Source: an uncultured Chloroflexia bacterium (GTDB lineage Bacteria; Chloroflexota; UBA6077; JACCZL01). From it: 64,000 nucleotides of DNA. The notes beneath the pieces were generated by a model that made no database searches, was not told the origin of the DNA, and saw nothing but the letters and a program-made list of their open reading frames with translations. The position numbers and the translations under genes were made by a program. Every line of letters begins with the position of its first letter. The first letter of the stretch is position 1. Below, one piece after another: positions 1,659 through 11,389 of the stretch. The stretch is taken from contig CAVXYC010000019.1 of assembly GCA_963765765.1 (NCBI GenBank), positions 160,001 to 224,000 on the forward strand, read 5' to 3'.

Positions 1659-2102
1659 ATGTCAGCGGATCCGGTGATGTCGGCTTACATTGTCGTCGCG
1701 GATGCGGCGGACGCGATTGAGTTTTATTCGAAGGTCTTCGGAGCGGTGGAGCGTATGCGCCTGGCCGAGCCGAGCGGTCGCATTGGCCACGCGGAGCTTG
1801 TCATTGGCGACAGCGTGCTCATGCTCGCCGATGAGCATCCCGAGCTCGGAGTCGTGGGCCCGCGCGCGATCGGCGGCTCGCCCGTGTCGCTCCATCTCCG
1901 TGTTGACGATGTGGATGCTGTCAGCACGGCCGCCGAACAGGCCGGTGCGACCATCGAGAGGGCCCCGGAGGAGCAGTTCTACGGGTCCCGGAGCGCGACA
2001 CTCATCGATCCATTCGGTCACCGATGGATGATTCAGACGCCTACCGAGGAGGTGTCGGCCGAGGAAGTTCAGCGACGCTATGACGCGATGATGACGACTT
2101 AG
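1659..2102 (+). CDS. VOC/glyoxalase (PhnB-like) protein
   Basis: AIEFYSKVFGA...HAELVIGDSVLMLADE...FYGSRSATLIDPFGHRW; RBS GGAGAG. Confidence 0.92.
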   Translation: MSADPVMSAYIVVADAADAIEFYSKVFGAVERMRLAEPSGRIGHAELVIGDSVLMLADEHPELGVVGPRAIGGSPVSLHLRVDDVDAVSTAAEQAGATIERAPEEQFYGSRSATLIDPFGHRWMIQTPTEEVSAEEVQRRYDAMMTT

Positions 2103-3400
2103 CTGGCCGCCCTCCCTGCGTCGCCGAGTCGACTCCTCCCGGCGTAAGCGTCTCGGCCGGCATTGAGCCGACTGAGGCAGACGACTCCCAGCAGTGCCAC
2201 GAGTCCTGCTTGACCGAATGCGAGCGGCCATCCGAGGTCCGCGCTGAAACTGTCCAGCACGATGCCCGCGACGACCGGAGCGACGACCGAGGCGCTAAAC
2301 GAGATCGAAGTCTGGGCCGCCTGCGTGGCGCCCAGCCTATTGGGCTCGGCAAGCTCGGTGATTGCCGTGGAGTACACCGCCGAGTCCGAGGCTACAAGAA
2401 GCCCGTAAATGAGAACGATTGCGACGAGCACCGGCCATGGCGCTCCTGAAAGCCAGCCGATGCAGAGTGAAGTTAGACCGCTGGTGAGTAGAAAGACGCC
2501 TGCGCCTCGGGCCCGGCCCAGACGGTCCGAGAGCGCACCGCCTGCGAGCACGCCCAACGCGGTGGGCAGCGATACGAGGCCAGACGTCGAAGCCGCTCTC
2601 GCGGTTGCTTCGACGGATTCAACACCTTGTTGAACAAGTGTCCAGGTCAGGTAGGGTGAGATCCAGGCGCGCGTCACGTACAACTCCCAGGTATGCGCGC
2701 TGTAAGCCAGAGTCACCAGCAGAATTCCCGGTGCTTTCAGTACGCTGAAGTCGGGCAGTCCACTTCGACGAGAAGTTGATATCGTGCGAGGACGAGTAAA
2801 CAAGCAGAGCGCGATCACTGGCGCCAGGCATGCGGCGCCGGCGACAGCGAGCATGGCTTCTCGCCATGCAGTGGCGCCGAGCAACACCCCCGTGATTACG
2901 AGCGATAGGCTGGAGCCAAGGTAAAACGCCGCCACGTACATTCCCACGGCGGCACCCCTGCGTTCTGAAAATTGCTCGGCAACGAGTCGTAATCCGGGCA
3001 TGTACACGCCGGCCAGACCCACTCCTGCGAGTGCACGTAGCACGGCCGCCGAGGGTATGTCATGACTCAGGATCGGAAAAAGCAGATTGGCCAGGCCCGC
3101 GGCCAGTGCCGATGCGGCGACAACGACGCGACTGTCCAGTCGATCCGTAAGCGACACCAGGAAGATTGTTGCCAGGACGTAGCCACATTGATGCGCTGAG
3201 AAGACTACGCCGGCTTGTGTACTCGAGATATCCCACTCACCCACGATGATGGGCTGAGCCGCCGAGAAGCTGGACGACGGCAGCAGGACCAGCATTAAGA
3301 CTGTGCTGATCGCGATCAGCCAGGGCAGATTCTTTGCGGGTCTGCGATGACATCGAAAGCGAGGGTACGAGTGGGTGCGCCGTTGATGCAATCGCACCAA
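2099..3400 (-). CDS. MFS transporter
   Basis: About 12 hydrophobic segments, loop motifs SLTDRLDSR and GALSDRLGR; true start may be ATG at 3353 with a frameshift. Confidence 0.88.
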   Translation of the reverse strand: MVRLHQRRTHSYPRFRCHRRPAKNLPWLIAISTVLMLVLLPSSSFSAAQPIIVGEWDISSTQAGVVFSAHQCGYVLATIFLVSLTDRLDSRVVVAASALAAGLANLLFPILSHDIPSAAVLRALAGVGLAGVYMPGLRLVAEQFSERRGAAVGMYVAAFYLGSSLSLVITGVLLGATAWREAMLAVAGAACLAPVIALCLFTRPRTISTSRRSGLPDFSVLKAPGILLVTLAYSAHTWELYVTRAWISPYLTWTLVQQGVESVEATARAASTSGLVSLPTALGVLAGGALSDRLGRARGAGVFLLTSGLTSLCIGWLSGAPWPVLVAIVLIYGLLVASDSAVYSTAITELAEPNRLGATQAAQTSISFSASVVAPVVAGIVLDSFSADLGWPLAFGQAGLVALLGVVCLSRLNAGRDAYAGRSRLGDAGRAAS

Positions 3401-3473
3401 GAACAGGTGCCCGCATCGAAGTCAATCCGTTGACGTATGATTCCAAACGACGAAACACGACGGTCGAAGTGGA

Positions 3474-4524
3474 ATGATGCTGAGATTTCGCCGACTCCTC
3501 GAAGCGCTCCCTCGCGGCGCACTTCTCCTATTAATACTCAGCATTGCCGTGGTCACGGCTTGTGCTCCAGCGACGAACACGCAGAGTGCCGCACAGAAGA
3601 ACGTTCACTTCATGGGCGGGTACAAGCCGCAAGCCAACCTGCCGTTCGTCGCAGCTTATGTGGCCCAGGCTCAAGGCTATTTCGCGGCTCAGAACCTCAA
3701 TGTCCAAATCTCACATTCGGCCGGTCAGGGAGAGCATCTCAAGCTCGTCCTCCAGGGCTCTGTCGACGTCACTACGGGCGCGGCGGACGCAGTGTTGGGG
3801 CGTCGCTCCGAGAATCTGCCAGTCACGGCATTTGCGCTATTCGGACAACGAGGCGACATCGCGTATGCCGTGTTGGAGTCATCGGAGATCCACTCACCGC
3901 GCGATTTCGAGAACCACACCGTTGGCTTCAAGGTCAATCCATCGCCGGAGTACCTGGCGCTACTCAAGACGACCGGCGTGGACCGCTCCAAGATCCAGGA
4001 AGTGCCCGTGGGGTTCGATCCGCGCTTGCTGGCCGCGGGCCGGGTTGACGTCTATCCGGTCTTCGAGTCAAACGAGCCGCATACGTTGCAAACCCTCGGC
4101 GTGCCGACACGATTGATCAAGGCATCCGACTACGGTGTGCCCGGGACTTGGCCTTACGTACATCACGCGACAGTCCCTCATCGATGACGACCCCGACGTA
4201 CTGGAGCGATTTCTCAAGGCCACGCTGCGCGGTGTTGAGTACGCTCGGGCCAATATCGACGCCGCAACAGATATCGTGATGCAGCACGCCCCCAACGAGG
4301 ATCGCGAGCATCAACGCAATATGCTTGAAGTCGAGCTGAACATGGCGGACGGTCCAGTCTCCCGTGCGAATGGGCTGGGCTGGTCAACGCAGGAGCAGTG
4401 GCAGGCGCTGAACAATTCGCTTCTGGAGTTCGGCGGACTGAAGCAATCGGTTGCTGCGGATACGGTGTTCAGTGATCGCATCATTCGGTCGGTCTACAAA
4501 AACGGGCAGCTCGTCTGGCCGTGA
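3474..4524 (+). CDS. ABC transporter substrate-binding lipoprotein, NMT1/THI5 (RibY-like) family; frameshift near 4140
   Basis: Lipobox VTAC, YKPQANLPFVAAYVAQAQGYF; continues in ORF 4135..4524 (GLTYITRQ...LERFLKATLRGVEYA). Confidence 0.85.
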
Positions 4525-5396
4525 CCTCTAGGGCAACTGTCTCCGCGTCTGAAGTGGGAATCGGCTCGGATACGGCGGAGACGCGCACAGAGCTTCCGGG
4601 GACCGGGTCCAGCATTCTGGCTCGTGGTGTCAGGCACGCATACGAGACCCGAAGTGGGACCGTGAGGGCGCTGGACGGCATCGATGTAGCCATTCGTCAC
4701 GGTGAGCTCGTGGCACTTCTGGGACCCAGCGGATGCGGGAAATCCACGTTTCTACGCATTCTCAGTGGATTGCTCGCCCCAACCGAGGGCCAGGTGCTTC
4801 TGGCCGGCGAAGCGCCCGCGTTGGCCAACCGCCGCTACGGGATGGGGTGGCTTGCTCAGGATGACGGTCTGCTTCCCTGGCGAAGTGTTGGCGCAAATGT
4901 CGCTCTGGCGCTGCAGCTTGGCGGACGTAATCCGGCTCGGGCTGACGATGAACAAGTCACTGCCATACTCGATCGTGTGGGATTGGCCGATAGCCTGAAC
5001 CGGTTTCCACACGAGCTGTCCGGGGGAATGCGCCAGCGTGCGGCCCTGGCCAGGGCCATCGTAAGCTCTCCGGCGTTTCTCTTTCTGGATGAACCGTTCG
5101 CCAATCTGGATGAGCTGATCCGCGAGCGGTTAGGTGAGCTGCTCATCGATGTTCGAAGGGCGACTCGGCCGACTACATTGCTGGTGACCCACTCTGTCAC
5201 GGAAGCCGTGCGCCTTGCGGACCGGGTGGTGGTGTTCTCACCCCGTCCCGGGCGCATCGTCTCCGAGATGGCAATCACCCTGAGTCAACCGCGCTCCTAC
5301 GATCAGCCGGGTTTTGGCGCCACCGCGGAACAGCTCAAACGAGCACTTCGAGATACCGACTCGTCGGTACAGGTGACGTCTGGCCAGGTGAAATGA
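4521..5396 (+). CDS. ABC transporter ATP-binding protein (NitT/TauT type)
   Basis: Walker A GPSGCGKS, signature LSGGMRQR, Walker B FLDEPF; GTGA overlap with upstream gene. Confidence 0.95.
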   Translation: MTSRATVSASEVGIGSDTAETRTELPGTGSSILARGVRHAYETRSGTVRALDGIDVAIRHGELVALLGPSGCGKSTFLRILSGLLAPTEGQVLLAGEAPALANRRYGMGWLAQDDGLLPWRSVGANVALALQLGGRNPARADDEQVTAILDRVGLADSLNRFPHELSGGMRQRAALARAIVSSPAFLFLDEPFANLDELIRERLGELLIDVRRATRPTTLLVTHSVTEAVRLADRVVVFSPRPGRIVSEMAITLSQPRSYDQPGFGATAEQLKRALRDTDSSVQVTSGQVK

Positions 5397-6160
5397 CGGC
5401 GAGCGGGATTCGTCAGTCAATTCCCACGATCGCGTTTTTAGTAGCGATCTTCGGTGCGTGGGAGGTCGTAACCTCGGTACTTCGGGTACCGAGTTATCTT
5501 CTCCCCGGCCCATCGCTCGTTCTTGGTCGCTGGATCTCCGACTTCCGCTTCTTCCTGTTCGAGGGTGGAATCACGCTCCTGGAAGCGCTTGCGGGACTGT
5601 TGCTTGGAGGGGGCGTTGCGCTTCTGGCAGCTTTGCTGATGGCGCGCTGGCCTTGGGTCGAGCGGGCCGTACTCCCGATCGCTATCGTGGCAAAGGTCAC
5701 GCCGGTCGTCATCGTGGCGCCGCTCTTTGCTCTGTGGTTCGGATTCGGACCGTTACCGCGCGTCTTGATCGCGGCCCTACTGACGTTTTTCCCCATCCTC
5801 ATTGGCGCTGTCTCCGGGCTTCGGGCCGCGCCTAGAGCAGCGCGCGATGTGTTTGCCACGTTGAATGCCACCCCCTTTGAAGACGCTTTCATGCTCCGTC
5901 TTCCCTACGCATTGCCTCAGCTCTTCGCCGCGATCAAGGTCTCCAGCACGCTTGCCTTGCTGGGCGCCGCGATTGCGGAGTGGGTAAGTGGTGACCGAGG
6001 CCTTGGTCGTGCGGTGCTCCTTGCCAACAGCAATCTGGATACACCAGGCGCGCTCGCCGGCGTGGCCACGATCGGCCTCTTCGGCATTGCTATGATCGGA
6101 CTGATCACCCTGCTCGAGCGGCGAGTTCTCTTCTGGGCGGGGGACGAGGTAGCCCGGTGA
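5393..6160 (+). CDS. ABC transporter permease (NitT/TauT, RibX-like)
   Basis: YLLPGPS...TPVVIVAPLFALWFGFG...LPYALPQLFAAIK...AEW..GLG; ATGA overlap. Confidence 0.93.
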   Translation: MTASGIRQSIPTIAFLVAIFGAWEVVTSVLRVPSYLLPGPSLVLGRWISDFRFFLFEGGITLLEALAGLLLGGGVALLAALLMARWPWVERAVLPIAIVAKVTPVVIVAPLFALWFGFGPLPRVLIAALLTFFPILIGAVSGLRAAPRAARDVFATLNATPFEDAFMLRLPYALPQLFAAIKVSSTLALLGAAIAEWVSGDRGLGRAVLLANSNLDTPGALAGVATIGLFGIAMIGLITLLERRVLFWAGDEVAR

Positions 6161-7083
6161 TCGTTGCACTGGCGGGCGGCGTCGGCGCTGCCCGCTTCCT
6201 GGAAGGGCTGGTTCGCGTTGCTCCACCCGAGACGGTAACCGTCATCGTGAACACTGGTGATGACGCCGAGTTCTATGGGCTTCATGTGTCGCCGGACGTC
6301 GATATTGTGGTCTACACCCTGGCCGGAATTGTGAATCCGGAGCACGGCTGGGGGATTAAGGGAGACTCGTTCAATGCGCTGGAGATGCTGGCGCGTCTGG
6401 GGCGCGAGACATGGTTCCAGCTTGGCGATCGCGATCTTGCCACGCTGATTCATCGCACCGACCTGCTACGTCGCGGCCTCAGTCTGTCAGAAGCGACCGC
6501 CCAGATCGCGACGGCGCTCGGTGTCCGCTCGCGCATCCTCCCAATGTCGGACCAACTGGTGCGGACCATGGTGCGGACCACTGCCGGCTGGCTCGCGTTT
6601 CAAGACTATTTCGTGAAGCTTCGGACGGAGCCCGATGTGGTGGAGATCGCCTATTCTGGCGCAGACATTTCCCAGCCGGCTCCGGGTGTCCTTGAAGCGA
6701 TCCACACGGCTGAAGCAATCGTTCTCTGCCCGAGCAATCCCCTGGTTAGTATCGGGACGACTCTGGCAGTCCCGGGAATTCGCGAAGCCCTTGGTGCCTC
6801 GAGCGCGCCCGTTGTTGCCATCAGTCCGATCGTCGGCGGCGGCACGATCAAGGGGCCGGCGGATCGCATGATGCGCGGACTGGGTATGGAAGTCTCGCCC
6901 GTGGGAGTCGCCCGGGCCTACCAGGACTTTCTCGACGTACTCGTTCTCGATGTGCAGGATGCTCACTACGCTCCTGAGATCGAGCGGTTGGGAATTCGGA
7001 CGCTTGTAACGGACACCATCATGCGGACCCTGGAGATCAAGGAGCAGTTGGCCAGTGAGACGCTTGCTACAGTGCTCGCATGA
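6157..7083 (+). CDS. cofD: 2-phospho-L-lactate transferase (F420 biosynthesis)
   Basis: ALAGGVGAARFLEGL, VNTGDD, VSPDVD, WFQLGDRDLAT, FQDYFV, PSNPLVSIG, KGPADRMM; GTGA overlap. Confidence 0.95.
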   Translation: MIVALAGGVGAARFLEGLVRVAPPETVTVIVNTGDDAEFYGLHVSPDVDIVVYTLAGIVNPEHGWGIKGDSFNALEMLARLGRETWFQLGDRDLATLIHRTDLLRRGLSLSEATAQIATALGVRSRILPMSDQLVRTMVRTTAGWLAFQDYFVKLRTEPDVVEIAYSGADISQPAPGVLEAIHTAEAIVLCPSNPLVSIGTTLAVPGIREALGASSAPVVAISPIVGGGTIKGPADRMMRGLGMEVSPVGVARAYQDFLDVLVLDVQDAHYAPEIERLGIRTLVTDTIMRTLEIKEQLASETLATVLA

Positions 7084-7727
7084 GTGGAATTTGGGCGCTC
7101 CTCCCCGTCAAGTCCCTCCAGCACGGTAAGTCGAGGCCTCTCGCCACGCCTTTCACTCGTGGAGCGGCAGGAGCTCTCCCTGGCGATGCTGCGAGACGTG
7201 CTAACCGCCGTAACGCAAGCCCCGAGCATCGTGGGCGGGCTTGTCATCCACTCCGATCCGATCATCGAGAGCCTGGCGACGGAGATGCTCGTGGAGGTCG
7301 AGTCGAGTCGCCCGAGGCAGGCGACCTCAATGGCGCGCTTCGTCAGGGCCTCGGGATCATCTCGAGCATGGGCGCCGACGGAGCGCTCATCATTCCGGGC
7401 GACGTGCCGCTCGTAGACGCCGCTGCCATCGAGCAGATCGTTTGGCTCTCGCCGGCATCACCCGGAATCACGATCTGCCCATCGCTGGACGAAGACGGAA
7501 CGAACGGCCTCTTGCTTTGCCCGGTGCAGGCAATCGGTCCGAAGTTTGGTCATCAGAGCTTTCACCGACACACCGAGCTGGCTCAATTCGCGGGTGTGCC
7601 GGTGGCGGTAAGCCGGATCGCATCTCTTGGGCTGGATATCGATGAGCCGAGAGATCTCGACGCCTTCCTTGCGGTGGACACTTTTACGCATGCAGGCGCG
7701 GTCTTGCGCGGTCTGGTCTCGCGTTAG
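7080..7727 (+). CDS. cofC: 2-phospho-L-lactate/PEP guanylyltransferase (F420 biosynthesis); compensating frameshifts about 7135-7310
   Basis: LLPVKSLQHGKSR, alternative-frame LSPRLSLVERQELSLAMLRDVL, DLNGAL, PGDVPLV, GTNGL, FGHQSFHRH, GLDIDEPRDL; ATGA overlap with cofD. Confidence 0.9.
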   Translation: MSGIWALLPVKSLQHGKSRPLATPFTRGAAGALPGDAARRANRRNASPEHRGRACHPLRSDHREPGDGDARGGRVESPEAGDLNGALRQGLGIISSMGADGALIIPGDVPLVDAAAIEQIVWLSPASPGITICPSLDEDGTNGLLLCPVQAIGPKFGHQSFHRHTELAQFAGVPVAVSRIASLGLDIDEPRDLDAFLAVDTFTHAGAVLRGLVSR

Positions 7728-7973
7728 AGCTTCCTTGAATCGCCACGGGCTGGTGGAACAGAATAAGCGTCCGTTCGGGTTGAAGGAAGCTCGAGGCGAC
7801 ACGCGCGTCGCGGGTTACCGATTAGGGCTCAGCGGCTGTGGGCACATCGCGTAGGCCCTCCACGGTCGTCGGTCATACGATCGTTCAATCGCCCTTGCAG
7901 CCCTGCGCAATGACCAGTTGGATTCGAAAGATTTCGTGCTCTATGCCATTTGCGTCACAGTGGCGGATCGGAC

Positions 7974-9543
7974 ATGATGACGGTGAGTGGCGAAATGCGG
8001 CGAAGCGAACTGATCTTTCTGGTACCGCTTGTGGTACTGACCGTTGCTCTGCGCCTGGTCGTCCTGGAGAGCTCAGAGTGGATGACCGAGGGGGATGAGG
8101 CCCTGACAGGCCTGATGGCCCTTCACATTCTGCACGGAGACAGGCCTGTATACCTCAACGGCCAGGCTTACATGGGTGCGTATCAAGCGTATGTCGCGGC
8201 GGGGCTCTTCGCGATTCTGGGAGTCTCGACGATTGCGCTCAAGATTGTCCCGTTGATCGGATCAGTCGCGTTCGTTCTCAGCATCTACATGCTTGCTCGA
8301 CGACTCATTTCTCCGTGGGGTGCATGCGCAGCGGGGTTGATCGCGGCGGTCCCCCCCGTGTACATCCTGGCCAACATGTCCAAGGCCTGGGCGCCACACG
8401 CCGAAGTCATGGCTCTCGGCAATGTGCTGATCCTGCTCGCCATTCGCCAGCACACCCGCGATGCCCGTGGTGCGGAGCCAGTACTGTTTGGAGCGTTGGC
8501 AGGCTTTGCCTTCTGGCTCCACCCTTTCGTTGCTTACTATCTCGTCGTTTGCGGATGCATCCTGGTGCTCGGCCAGCCGATCCGGACACTGACCCGCTTG
8601 CCTCTTCTATTGGCCGGAATTGTGGTGGGCACGATGCCGGTCTGGATGGCCAACGTCGCCTACGCCTCGGACACTTTCCGTTTCCTGACGGTGCCGACGG
8701 GCTCTCACCAGGATATAGGGGCGATCGCCTCGTACCTTGTGTATTCTGGACTGCCTCGAGCGATGGGCTGGTGGCAGCCCTGGGGCGTCCTTCCTCAGCC
8801 GGCCGCCTGGATGCTGATAGGTACCACGGGCCTCGGCCTGCTCGTACTGTTTGTGCGGGGCCGGGCAGACTCACGGCTTCAGGATCGCTCCGACCGATGC
8901 GCCGATCCTGCTGGCGATCAGTGTGCCGGCCATGTTTGTCATGAGCGGCTTCGGTGGGCCCAGCCAGAACCCCTGGGGATTCGACGCTACCGGCCGCTAT
9001 CTAATGCCTCTGTGGGGTGTGGTGCCATTGGCAGTGGCGGCATTTGCTCAATTCCTCCTGAAATCACATTGGCTTGCGGTGAGCGCGGTGACCCTGGTAG
9101 TAGGCGCCCAGGCCCTCGGTTATGCCACGGCGGATCCCTTGCAGATTTTTCAATCACCGTACTGGAATAGACTCCCAGCACAGAGCACAGCCCTCGAGAA
9201 CTATCTGCTGGAGCACGGGGTGACCCGCGTCTGGATGAACCACTGGGCCGGATTTCCGCTCATGTTGCGGACGGGAGAGCGGGTGATCGCCACGGACTAC
9301 TATGACGTCGTAAAAGGGGGCGGGATCAGCCGATTCCCCGAGCATTTCGATGCCATGGAGCATGCCGAGCAAACCGCGTATATTCTCGTGACCACGGAGT
9401 ACAGTCCTCCGTTGCTCGGAGAGCTTCACGAATTAGGTGTGGACTATCGCGCTGAAAGGTTCGATCAGTACCTGGTAGTCCAGCCTCTATCCAGGCGCGT
9501 TGAGCCCTGGGAAGTGGCAGATTCCATTGGCTACAAGTATTGA
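7974..9543 (+). CDS. GT-C fold membrane glycosyltransferase (GT39/ArnT-like); frameshift near 8870
   Basis: EGDEALTGLMALHIL..GQAYMG after first TM helix, many TM segments; continues in ORF 8851..9543. Confidence 0.8.
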
Positions 9544-11389
9544 CTCACATCCGCATGGTGCCTCCATCGCGGATGACCACGCGCTCGTTACGCACCAAGC
9601 AGCGCCACACTCGCTCGCGCGGATCGCTCCGTGGTGTGTTCTACTTGTCTGCGCCCTTTTAAGTCTTGTCCTTTACGCACTGCTACTGGACACTATTCCG
9701 GGGCTGATTCACGCGCAGCGGAGCTTTGCAGAGCAAGTCATAGCCGTCGCCGCCATTCCACTTCGTGGCTCCTGTCTCGAGATTTGCGGATCCATGCCTC
9801 TGGCGCAGTCGGTGGTTCTCCACGCTGCCGCCTCGGTTCGCTTCATATCAATTCTGCTGGGGCTCTTCCTCACCTATGGAGTAGCGCTTCGAGCGGTGGC
9901 CGGTCGGCGATCGAATGGGCTTGCCATTACTGCCATGGTGGCCGGTGCGTCGTTCCTGCTTCTCATGCTATTGAGTCCGGCGCTCCTGTCGAGTGACATC
10001 TTTAGCTATATCTTCTATGGCCGCATCGCCGGTATCTACGGGGATGACCCGTACACCGAGGTTCCAGCGAGCTATCCCAATGATCCGTATCTTCGGTATG
10101 TATTCTGGGCTCGGGACCCGACCTATTACGGTCCTATCTGGACGCTCGTCTCACGCGCTCTTGCGGTGTTGGGCGGGGATTATGTCGGTCTTACGACGCT
10201 TCTGTTTCGATTACTGGCCATCGCTTCCGTAATCGTCACGTCCGGACTGATCTGGTGGTCACTGGCCAAGACGCGGCCCGAACGGGCGATTCAGGGACTG
10301 GTGTTTTTTCTGTGGAACCCATTAATCGTGATCGAGTTCGGCCTCAGTGCTCACAACGATTCGCTCATGTTGGTGTTCGTGCTCCTGGCCGTTGCCCTGC
10401 ACATCTCGCGTCGATATGCCATAGCCACCACGATGCTGGTGCTCTCAATGCTGGTAAAGGTTGTGGCCGCGCCGCTCATCCCACTCTACGTGGTGATGGC
10501 GCTGCGGCAGATTCCGGGAATCTGGCCCAAAGCCCGTTATCTGCTGGTTAGCGGACTCCTCGTAGTTTCGGTCGCAAGTCTTACATTGGCAGCGGCTCGA
10601 GTAGGGCCTGAGGTTCTAACCGTTGGCTCATTGGGCGTGAGCGCAAACCGGTACGAGAACAGCCTGCATGAGCTGGCGTTCGATTGGCTGCGCGGGGACC
10701 TGGGTAAGGAGTCTGAATGGAATGACGTCCCCGTGAGCTTCGAGCCGCACTGGCTGGGAGCCCACGCGGACGCGGAGTTGTGGTCGGACACAGAGCCGAT
10801 TGGGATGGTCCGGCAGTGGAATACCCTCCTGGCGTTGGCACCTCAGAAGGGTGATTGGATACGAGTGTTTGAATACGCGACCGGTCGAGTGGGCTACGTA
10901 AGGGCCACATCGCTCGGTCCCGTTGGTCGCCCGGGGGACGTTACTGGAGCGGAAATTACGCGCCTGGAAGCGGGTCCGGCAGGAAGCGCGTCAACGAGGG
11001 AAGCCAACACAAGAGTGCGAATTGTGAGCTGGGTGGGGTTCGGCCTGGTCGGGCTCGTTGCCGCGTGGCGTGTACGTGACCTTAGGTCGTTCCTGATCTG
11101 GTCCACAGGAGTCATGCTTGCCTACTATTGGCTTGCGGCCGCGTGGATCTGGCCCTGGTATGTGACATGGGCCTTTGTTCTTGCAGCGCTCGTCCCGAAT
11201 ACTCGCATCGCTGGTCTGGCCGCGATTCTTTCAGCAGCGGTGCTCACGCTCTACGCGAGCCTCGGGTTTGAGGGCACGGTCGATGATTGGATCTTCGTCT
11301 ATCGAGCGTTGCCAGCATTCGCGCTGCCGCTGGTGGCCTGGGTATTGTGGCTGGGGTTGAGGCGGATGCTGCCACAAGGAGTGCGATAA
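9500..11389 (+). CDS. GT-C polyprenol-phosphomannose-dependent mannosyltransferase (MptA/MptB-like) with inserted SH3-like domain
   Basis: LSSDIFSYIFYGRI..DPY, YGPIW, WNPLIVIEFGLSAHNDSLM, WPWY motifs. Confidence 0.82.
   Translation: MSPGKWQIPLATSIDSHPHGASIADDHALVTHQAAPHSLARIAPWCVLLVCALLSLVLYALLLDTIPGLIHAQRSFAEQVIAVAAIPLRGSCLEICGSMPLAQSVVLHAAASVRFISILLGLFLTYGVALRAVAGRRSNGLAITAMVAGASFLLLMLLSPALLSSDIFSYIFYGRIAGIYGDDPYTEVPASYPNDPYLRYVFWARDPTYYGPIWTLVSRALAVLGGDYVGLTTLLFRLLAIASVIVTSGLIWWSLAKTRPERAIQGLVFFLWNPLIVIEFGLSAHNDSLMLVFVLLAVALHISRRYAIATTMLVLSMLVKVVAAPLIPLYVVMALRQIPGIWPKARYLLVSGLLVVSVASLTLAAARVGPEVLTVGSLGVSANRYENSLHELAFDWLRGDLGKESEWNDVPVSFEPHWLGAHADAELWSDTEPIGMVRQWNTLLALAPQKGDWIRVFEYATGRVGYVRATSLGPVGRPGDVTGAEITRLEAGPAGSASTREANTRVRIVSWVGFGLVGLVAAWRVRDLRSFLIWSTGVMLAYYWLAAAWIWPWYVTWAFVLAALVPNTRIAGLAAILSAAVLTLYASLGFEGTVDDWIFVYRALPAFALPLVAWVLWLGLRRMLPQGVR

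Follow-up and report, generated by a model that had tools for sequence, protein, structure and literature searches.

A Candidate Deazaflavin Salvage Importer Encoded with cofD and cofC in an Uncultured Chloroflexia Bacterium

A five-gene operon from an uncultured Chloroflexia bacterium appears to encode an importer for deazaflavin salvage. The operon occupies positions 3474..7727 on the plus strand of the window, by which we mean the whole analyzed stretch of 64,000 nt from contig CAVXYC010000019.1 (assembly GCA_963765765.1, here G000); relatives are labeled G, loci L, and contigs C. On the basis of gene content and comparative genomics, we read this operon with moderate confidence as a substrate-binding protein (SBP)-dependent type I ATP-binding cassette (ABC) importer, most likely for FO, that is coupled to cofD and cofC. 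FO (7,8-didemethyl-8-hydroxy-5-deazariboflavin) resembles riboflavin and is released by F420 producers. CofD joins it to an activated lactyl or enolpyruvyl arm. We consider FO the likeliest cargo because translational coupling ties the permease gene to cofD and cofC, whose products act on FO. An earlier note, made from the letters of this stretch, had proposed the import of FO or an F420 fragment for salvage, and the comparative analysis described here lends that proposal support.

The five genes match, in order, the Pfam families NMT1 (SBP), ABC_tran, BPD_transp_1, CofD, and CofC, and they are joined by four 4-bp stop/start overlaps (GTGA at 4521, ATGA at 5393, GTGA at 6157, and ATGA at 7080). 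The first gene (3474..4524) encodes an SBP lipoprotein with an NMT1/THI5-like fold, and the signal peptide seen in its translation ends in the lipobox VTAC. In the assembly, this gene lies in two frames (3474..4187 and 4135..4524). These two pieces score 103.3 and 23.2 bits against Pfam NMT1 and 364.8 and 202.3 bits against A1, a profile made from ten intact SBP orthologues whose alignment defines the Chloroflexota clade to which the protein belongs. The ATPase (4521..5396, ABC_tran 117.6 bits) begins with a GTG that overlaps the SBP stop and carries the Walker A motif GPSGCGKS and the signature LSGGMRQR; its best NCBIfam matches are taurine/sulfonate/nitrate-type ATPases, every one under its cutoff. 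The permease (5393..6160, BPD_transp_1 80.4 bits) overlaps the ATPase stop with its start and is 54–73% identical to the permeases adjoining SBP orthologues in relatives. A lipobox SBP, a BPD_transp_1 permease, and an ATPase with a Walker A motif and an LSGGQ-type signature are therefore encoded together, which is the makeup of a type I SBP-dependent ABC importer.

The two remaining genes belong to F420 biosynthesis. The cofD gene (also fbiA, 6157..7083) overlaps the permease stop with its start and scores 321.9 bits against TIGR01819 (cutoff 257.45) and 172.9 bits against Pfam CofD. It is distinct from YvcK, for which TIGR01826 gives only 50 bits. The guanylyltransferase gene cofC (also fbiD, 7080..7727) likewise overlaps the cofD stop with its start, is the sole copy in the genome, and contains two frameshifts in the assembly. 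Its open reading frame (ORF) matches Pfam CofC (PF01983) with 42.1 bits against a cutoff of 22 over residues 79–209, the C-terminal two-thirds only, and an alternative frame (7084..7416) holds the N-terminal part with 18.6 bits. The intact CofC homologue of the relative G007 exceeds the TIGR03552 cutoff (132.1 versus 105). The five genes and four overlaps listed in the earlier note are thus borne out by the Pfam matches and the GTGA/ATGA junctions, but the SBP is not a single frame, and this shift, like the two in cofC, had been overlooked.

FO synthase genes are absent from the source genome. A whole-genome search of G000 (6.49 Mb, 33 contigs, 91.84% complete, 6.85% contamination) gave no match to cofG or cofH anywhere, and the absence in a genome of 91.84% completeness is further supported because cofH was also not found in seven of nine same-family relatives, G006 and G007 being the two exceptions. 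The later steps are encoded in part outside the window. The cofE gene is absent from the window, and its only copy, on contig C14, lies over the TIGR01916 cutoff (257 bits). About 1.1 kb downstream of this cofE is an FbiB-C-like nitroreductase gene with 155.8 bits for TIGR03553, under the cutoff of that model. For cofD and cofC, the window holds the only copies in the genome, and the window cofD encodes the sole F420-type CofD; a second match to the CofD family on contig C15 was considered as a spare cofD and rejected, being YvcK (TIGR01826, 348.7 bits). Enzymes that depend on F420H2 are also encoded, with six matches to PF04075 (FDOR-A) over the cutoff and two of ten matches to TIGR03618 (FDOR-B) over theirs. 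G000 therefore looks as proposed for an FO-salvage host: FO synthase genes are missing, and the later steps to F420 are encoded along with enzymes that depend on it. The earlier note had seen neither FO synthase genes nor cofE in the window and had named a genome-wide look for cofG, cofH, or fbiC as a check; the first statement holds, and the genome as a whole has cofC, cofD, cofE, and FDOR enzymes while having no cofG or cofH.

A stand-alone FbiB-C-like nitroreductase is encoded near cofE in G000 (the pair at G000:C14:179153-179932 and 181049-181645), and others were seen at L024:6510-7127 and L036:4848-5456. The two that were scanned score 149–156 bits, below the TIGR03553 cutoff, and this group is a candidate for a separate dehydro-F420-0 reductase. 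In G007 and L036, such a gene directly follows the SBP gene.

The linkage of this importer to F420 genes recurs across the SBP clade. The clade comprises 405 confirmed loci in contigs taken from one genome per species, and neighborhood counts refer to the best 80 of the 405; a neighbor was counted when tblastn gave a coverage of ≥50% at E ≤ 1e-8 within up to 8 kb of the SBP gene. A permease was present in 71 and an ATPase in 68 of these 80 loci. F420-related neighbors included cofE (11 loci), cofD (9), fno (9), cofC (8), and the FbiB-C-like nitroreductase (3), and at least one of cofC, cofD, and cofE was found at 15 loci in varied gene orders. Where cofD was present, it stood directly after the SBP gene in seven of the nine cases. 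The order ATPase-permease-SBP-cofD-cofC-fno-cofE was shared by L034, L035, L038, and L040, and L037, whose contig begins at the SBP gene, has SBP-cofD-cofC-fno-cofE. Relatives showed further arrangements: cofC divergent from SBP-cofD in G036, cofD-cofC convergent on SBP-nitroreductase in G007, SBP-ATPase-cofE in G011, SBP-ATPase-permease-cofE in G029, and PPOX-fno-SBP in G015, in which fno exceeds the TIGR01915 cutoff. On the SBP tree, the label of having an F420-gene neighbor changes eight times, well-supported branches require at least six of these changes, and each of the three subclades contains the label. Conservation of the transporter–cof linkage, on which the earlier note had made its proposal depend, is thus seen at 15 of 80 loci as at least six separate events. 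Near 13 more distant SBP loci, referred to here as the second tier, no F420 genes were found (0 of 13).

Another recurrent neighbor is a fusion of an IclR-type helix-turn-helix (HTH) domain and a PPOX domain, encoded directly upstream of the transporter in 22 of the 80 clade loci and the rule in the Anaerolineae subclade. The protein has about 390 aa and an IclR/BhcR-like HTH (e.g., L020:1877-3040, L021:1642-2853, and L018:8341-9516). The best NCBIfam match of its PPOX domain is the F420-dependent TIGR03618, with 57.5 bits under a cutoff of 79. This HTH-PPOX protein is a candidate deazaflavin-sensing regulator. A tblastn search at E ≤ 1e-10 gave no match to it in G000.

The hosts of the clade are nearly all Chloroflexota, represented by metagenome-assembled genomes (MAGs) of Limnocylindria, Dehalococcoidia including SAR202, and Anaerolineae including the Ornatilinea and Bellilinea isolates. 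Four members (L049, L058, L063, and L103) are on MAGs labeled Udaeobacter, Dormiibacterota, Bathyarchaeia, and Spirochaetaceae, yet are nested among Chloroflexota in the tree; they are probably explained by mis-binning, or else by lateral transfer. A1 scores were bimodal in a sample of 401 Chloroflexota genomes, with 24 genomes at ≥326 bits and 39 at 140–183 bits, and the 13 second-tier loci were taken from this lower-scoring group. An FMN riboswitch precedes permease-SBP genes of the RibXY type in four of the second-tier loci, a TPP riboswitch occurs in one (L128) and a purine riboswitch in another, and the other seven lack any riboswitch. A tree of 91 rows (IQ-TREE, quick setting; 78 clade rows, two further clade rows being left out, and 13 second-tier rows with long branches) split the clade from the second tier at 99% SH-aLRT and gathered the FMN-linked SBPs in a group of their own (99%). 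SBPs of the two tiers share 25–29% identity. Judged by sequence, the clade is thus separate from both the RibY type linked to FMN riboswitches and the ThiY type linked to TPP riboswitches, which answers the question of tree placement posed by the earlier note: the SBP sits in its own clade.

This placement bears on the possibility that the operon encodes a RibXY-like importer for riboflavin or flavins and that the F420 genes stand beside it by coincidence. Its SBP shares the Pfam family and the fold of RibY-type SBPs. RibXY of Chloroflexus aurantiacus rescued an Escherichia coli ribB mutant, and RibY is reported to bind flavins (PMC4418817); a yeast study suggests shared uptake routes for FO and riboflavin (PMC8859854). 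We nevertheless consider a riboflavin importer quite improbable. In the first 12,000 nt of the window, no Rfam match was found at E ≤ 1, so neither an FMN nor a TPP riboswitch precedes the SBP gene, as the earlier note had observed. The FMN covariance model R1 matched its five training sequences alone and left the window and all 80 clade loci without a match, a result that has no independent positive control; four of the 13 second-tier loci, by comparison, have this riboswitch. Riboflavin synthesis in G000 is complete, and the single FMN riboswitch of the genome precedes ribD-ribE-ribBA-ribH, so riboflavin is made by the organism itself from a riboswitch-controlled operon. The low identity to second-tier SBPs and the 99% split stand against this reading as well, and recurrent linkage to cofC, cofD, cofE, and fno would not be expected of a riboflavin importer. 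The label "RibXY-type" given by the earlier note therefore applies at the superfamily level only; the SBP is not a RibY orthologue and has no FMN riboswitch.

Further related systems came to light. L116, L117, L119, and L120, second-tier loci of family f27, are RibXY-like permease-SBP pairs with no riboswitch of any kind; in this family, cofD and cofE were present in 25 of 25 sampled genomes and cofH was over its cutoff in none. G000 itself encodes another NMT1-type ABC system at G000:C23:163493-166527 (L114), made up of an ATPase, a small ORF, a permease, and an SBP. Its SBP is a paralogue, with 208 bits for Pfam NMT1, far above the window SBP, and only 103.6 bits for A1.

The distribution of the clade across the phylum sample is consistent with FO salvage. 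Because the sampled genomes are related to one another, counts are given without a formal test; unpublished records are included (G075 as a carrier and G174, G199, G251, and G363 in the tallies). Over the 401 genomes, cofD exceeded its cutoff in 257, cofE was matched in 264, and cofH exceeded its cutoff in 49. The clade was carried by 24 genomes (≥326 bits), of which 23 had cofE, 21 had cofD, and none had cofH over the cutoff; the carrier lacking cofE, G219, is 76% complete. Conversely, 48 genomes had cofE together with cofH, and the clade was absent from all of them. Pairs of sub-cutoff "cofH" matches (250–330 bits) were considered as a hidden FO synthase and rejected, since the pair in G015 is MqnE/MqnC over their own cutoffs. 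These counts suggest that FO synthase is a rarity among Chloroflexota, in contrast to the widespread F420 tail pathway. This runs against the statement of a 2021 F420 review that genes for FO synthesis are generally found alongside those of the later steps (PMC8498797).

Several observations, in distribution, gene context, fold, and the assembly itself, weigh against FO import as the function of this operon. The clade was found in only 23 of 216 cofE-positive, cofH-negative genomes, and because about nine in ten of these lack it, it is not a general or the only route for FO auxotrophs. Two relatives carry the SBP together with FO synthase genes: G006, an unpublished record, has cofH over the cutoff, and G007 has cofG intact but cofH broken into two ORFs (296 and 125 aa). 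Salvage and FO synthase genes are therefore not strictly exclusive. In G007, the cofG/split cofH locus (L130, G007:C73:349000-353500) shares a contig with the SBP/cofD/cofC locus at a distance of about 38 kb and could reflect an FO synthase in decay or an assembly error. The fno gene was not found in G000. Three carriers, G029 (99% complete), G220 (97%), and G004 (80%), have cofE and no F420-type cofD, with YvcK-like CofD matches only. In addition, at six of the 80 loci (L033, L048, L051, L058, L071, and L103), the transporter is linked to cofE, often with fno, and neither cofD nor cofC is in the fetched span.

These last two findings raise the alternative that the importer takes up a finished or half-finished cofactor, such as F420-0 or short-tailed F420, whose tail is then adjusted by CofE, the linkage to cofD and cofC reflecting a broader "deazaflavin economy" operon. 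The six loci with cofE alone favor such a cargo, as do G029 and G220, nearly complete genomes that pair the SBP with cofE. Against it, the window permease is coupled to cofD and cofC, which would be useless for a cargo already bearing the arm, and cofD, where it neighbors the clade, mostly follows the SBP gene directly. The pocket of a ThiY-like SBP is small, and solved structures imply that an oligoglutamyl tail would need to protrude from it. We regard this alternative as unlikely for the operon described here; the cargo may still be F420-0 or F420 in some lineages because of the three carriers without an F420-type cofD and the six loci that tie the transporter to cofE alone.

No F420-related neighbor was found in 43 of the 80 clade loci, many of which are on short contigs, and no other shared theme emerged from Pfam matches of 54 ORFs at 11 such loci. 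The AlphaFold model of the SBP (pLDDT 87.5) matched ThiY with bound FAMP (3ix1) in Foldseek at E 4e-26, TM 0.77/0.88, and rmsd 2.2, and 3ix1 and 4nmy (thiamin) are its closest fold neighbors, followed by THI5, TauA/SsuA, and PqqT (PQQ). It counts in favor of our reading that the solved structures nearest to this model are binding proteins for heteroaromatic cofactor parts (FAMP, thiamin, and PQQ). The closest, however, are just 23% identical, and their ligands are pyrimidines or thiamin and no flavins. A ThiY-like fold does not establish the same ligand.

An importer of some other heteroaromatic or sulfonate-like compound (thiamine pyrimidine, a sulfonate, PQQ, or similar) would account for these points if the F420 neighbors were F420-dependent enzymes acting on that compound. 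The ligands of the nearest solved structures (FAMP, thiamin, PLP-derived intermediates, taurine, and PQQ), the 43 loci lacking F420 neighbors, and the F420-using LLM and PPOX oxidoreductases near some loci are in line with this idea. The neighbors, however, go beyond F420 users and include F420 biosynthesis genes (cofC, cofD, cofE, and the FbiB-C-like gene) and the F420 reductase gene fno. No TPP riboswitch is present, and the only NCBIfam match of the SBP is SsuA_fam (TIGR01728) at 48.8 bits against a cutoff of 163.5, which places it outside SsuA/TauA. Thiamine salvage, suggested by two TenA genes in G011, was rejected, as tenA occurs near the SBP gene in one of the 80 loci, with three opposite-strand genes in between. 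An other-compound importer is thus improbable, and deazaflavin import remains the favored reading.

The integrity of the operon also had to be weighed. In the SBP gene, one surplus base in a ccc/ggg run near 4140 splits the frame, so that DYGVPGTWPYVHH stands in the window at the place of DYGVP.LGLTY, which is shared by 10 of 10 intact relatives. In cofC, the stretch 7080..7727 is open by chance; the conserved N-terminal and middle part, from about 7137 to 7260–7317, is in another frame. A +1 shift lies near 7137, the frame is regained between 7260 and 7317 at a GTCGA tandem, and tblastn returned cofC in two pieces (7162-7260 and 7317-7715) in different frames. Read data were available as Logan contigs of four runs. 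Run X3, a soil metagenome with a depth of 2–2.9, holds a strain near-identical to the window: its 151-nt contig over 4016-4167 (one other mismatch) has one base fewer at 4140, and its contig over 7091-7242 (no mismatches) has one base fewer at 7137. Near-identical contigs over the shift sites come from X3 only; runs X1, X2, and X4 match short stretches elsewhere, and a large share of the contigs in these three runs belongs to other organisms. Support at 4140 and 7137 is thus one low-depth contig each, and the third shift (7260–7317) is outside the coverage of every run. The same assembly also breaks rpoB (G000:C20:326017-329370), in which model positions 599–724 are in a different frame and the main frame is open for 1187 aa. 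This paired-indel pattern resembles that of cofC and points to indel errors in the assembly; rpoC is intact. A count of 25 ORFs of ≥1000 aa in the genome was uninformative about the error rate.

Three frameshifts within 4.25 kb, the missing fno, and the uncovered third shift could instead mean that in this genome the operon is a relic in decay, with the SBP gene and cofC as true pseudogenes and F420 salvage lost. We think this very improbable. The near-identical strain is free of the surplus base at both covered sites with 0–1 other differences in 151 nt, the two shifts of cofC restore the frame as expected of paired errors, and the coding sequence is otherwise well kept, the N and C parts of the SBP being 86% and 74% identical to an intact same-genus protein. 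The three frameshifts in the SBP gene and cofC are probably assembly errors, because X3 contigs are free of the surplus base at 4140 and 7137, two of the three sites, and because the essential rpoB is frame-broken as well.

Upstream of the operon, a 73-bp leader (3401..3473, plus strand) separates the SBP start from a divergent MFS gene (2099..3400, minus strand). This leader contains no promoter-like site and no sigma-70-like match, and promoter and terminator scans gave nothing exceeding shuffled expectation. A contig of run X4, from another soil sample, lacks four bases at 3459, shortly before the SBP start, and departs from the window at 3533-3534 as well, indicating strain variation in the putative regulatory region. 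Downstream, the region 7950-11389 holds three long ORFs on the plus strand (7950..9170, 8851..9543, and 9500..11389), which overlap one another and are in different frames. Only the first has a Pfam match (PMT_2 glycosyltransferase), and the region is perhaps an indel-broken gene.

For the proposed salvage route, we infer what the transporter carries and in which direction, as well as what each enzyme does. The lipid-anchored SBP would capture FO that soil F420 producers release, and the permease and ATPase would bring it into the cell. CofC would use GTP to activate phosphoenolpyruvate or 2-phospholactate, and CofD would move the activated arm onto FO. The unlinked FbiB-C-like nitroreductase on C14 may then reduce dehydro-F420-0, and CofE, also from C14, would attach the glutamates. 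The resulting F420 would be used by the FDOR-type reductases, whose genes lie in other parts of the genome.

If this reading is true, the importer would explain how organisms without FO synthase are supplied with F420 and would make FO a public good in microbial communities. Chloroflexota is a dominant phylum of soil, sediment, and ocean, and it would largely depend on deazaflavin from other microbes because cofD (257) and cofE (264) are so much more frequent than cofH (only 49) among the 401 genomes. We therefore put forward, more tentatively, that most Chloroflexota obtain FO, and perhaps F420, as a traded "vitamin," with the clade as the first dedicated deazaflavin uptake system and the HTH-PPOX protein as the first deazaflavin-sensing transcription factor. 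FO supplementation could become a handle for cultivating uncultured Chloroflexota, and the importer could become a part for F420-dependent biocatalysis in FO-fed hosts.

The candidate would be the first importer for an F420 precursor. The earlier note knew of no characterized FO or F420 importer, and our full-text literature search, whose coverage does not include the main genomic survey (Ney et al. 2017), likewise turned up no description of one. In its available text, the 2021 review mentions neither uptake nor scavenging (PMC8498797). The sole transporter tied to an F420 gene cluster in the literature searched, so far as the available texts go, is an ABC transporter of Mycetohabitans (Paraburkholderia) rhizoxinica. 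It neighbors the 3PG-F420 cluster and was proposed as an exporter (PMC8498797) and later labeled heavy-metal resistance (PMC11104420). That organism is a producer with fbiC, and the available texts describe no SBP-dependent importer there.

Three other known systems bear comparison. PqqT (PDB 9b1u and 9ooz) belongs to the same fold class and takes up a finished redox-cofactor headgroup for the organism that uses it, but it is a weaker structural match to the SBP model (TM 0.63/0.72, 17–18% identity) and concerns another cofactor in another gene context. ThiXYZ with ThiY (3ix1) and the thiamin-bound SBP 4nmy provide the best sequence and fold matches (E about 1e-28, TM 0.75–0.88) and are likewise importers for cofactor-fragment salvage. 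They differ from the window system in the 23% identity of the SBP, the lack of a TPP riboswitch, and the near absence of tenA from its surroundings (1 of 80 loci), and the NMT1 system of G000 on C23 (208 bits) is separate. RibXY of C. aurantiacus (Caur_0816-0817), whose orthologues were called by an FMN riboswitch upstream of the permease/SBP genes, is comparable, as far as the available text of PMC4418817 goes, in its NMT1/COG0715 SBP, COG0600-type permease, and ABC ATPase (as RibXY(Z)), in its phylum, in its role in salvage, and in its tricyclic (iso)alloxazine-like cargo. The window SBP differs in not being a RibY orthologue, as judged against FMN-riboswitch-linked SBPs (25–29% identity, 99% split), a comparison in which the Caur_0817 sequence itself was not included. 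Its clade has no FMN riboswitch in the window or at any of the 80 loci, and it is linked to cofC, cofD, cofE, and fno instead of to rib genes.

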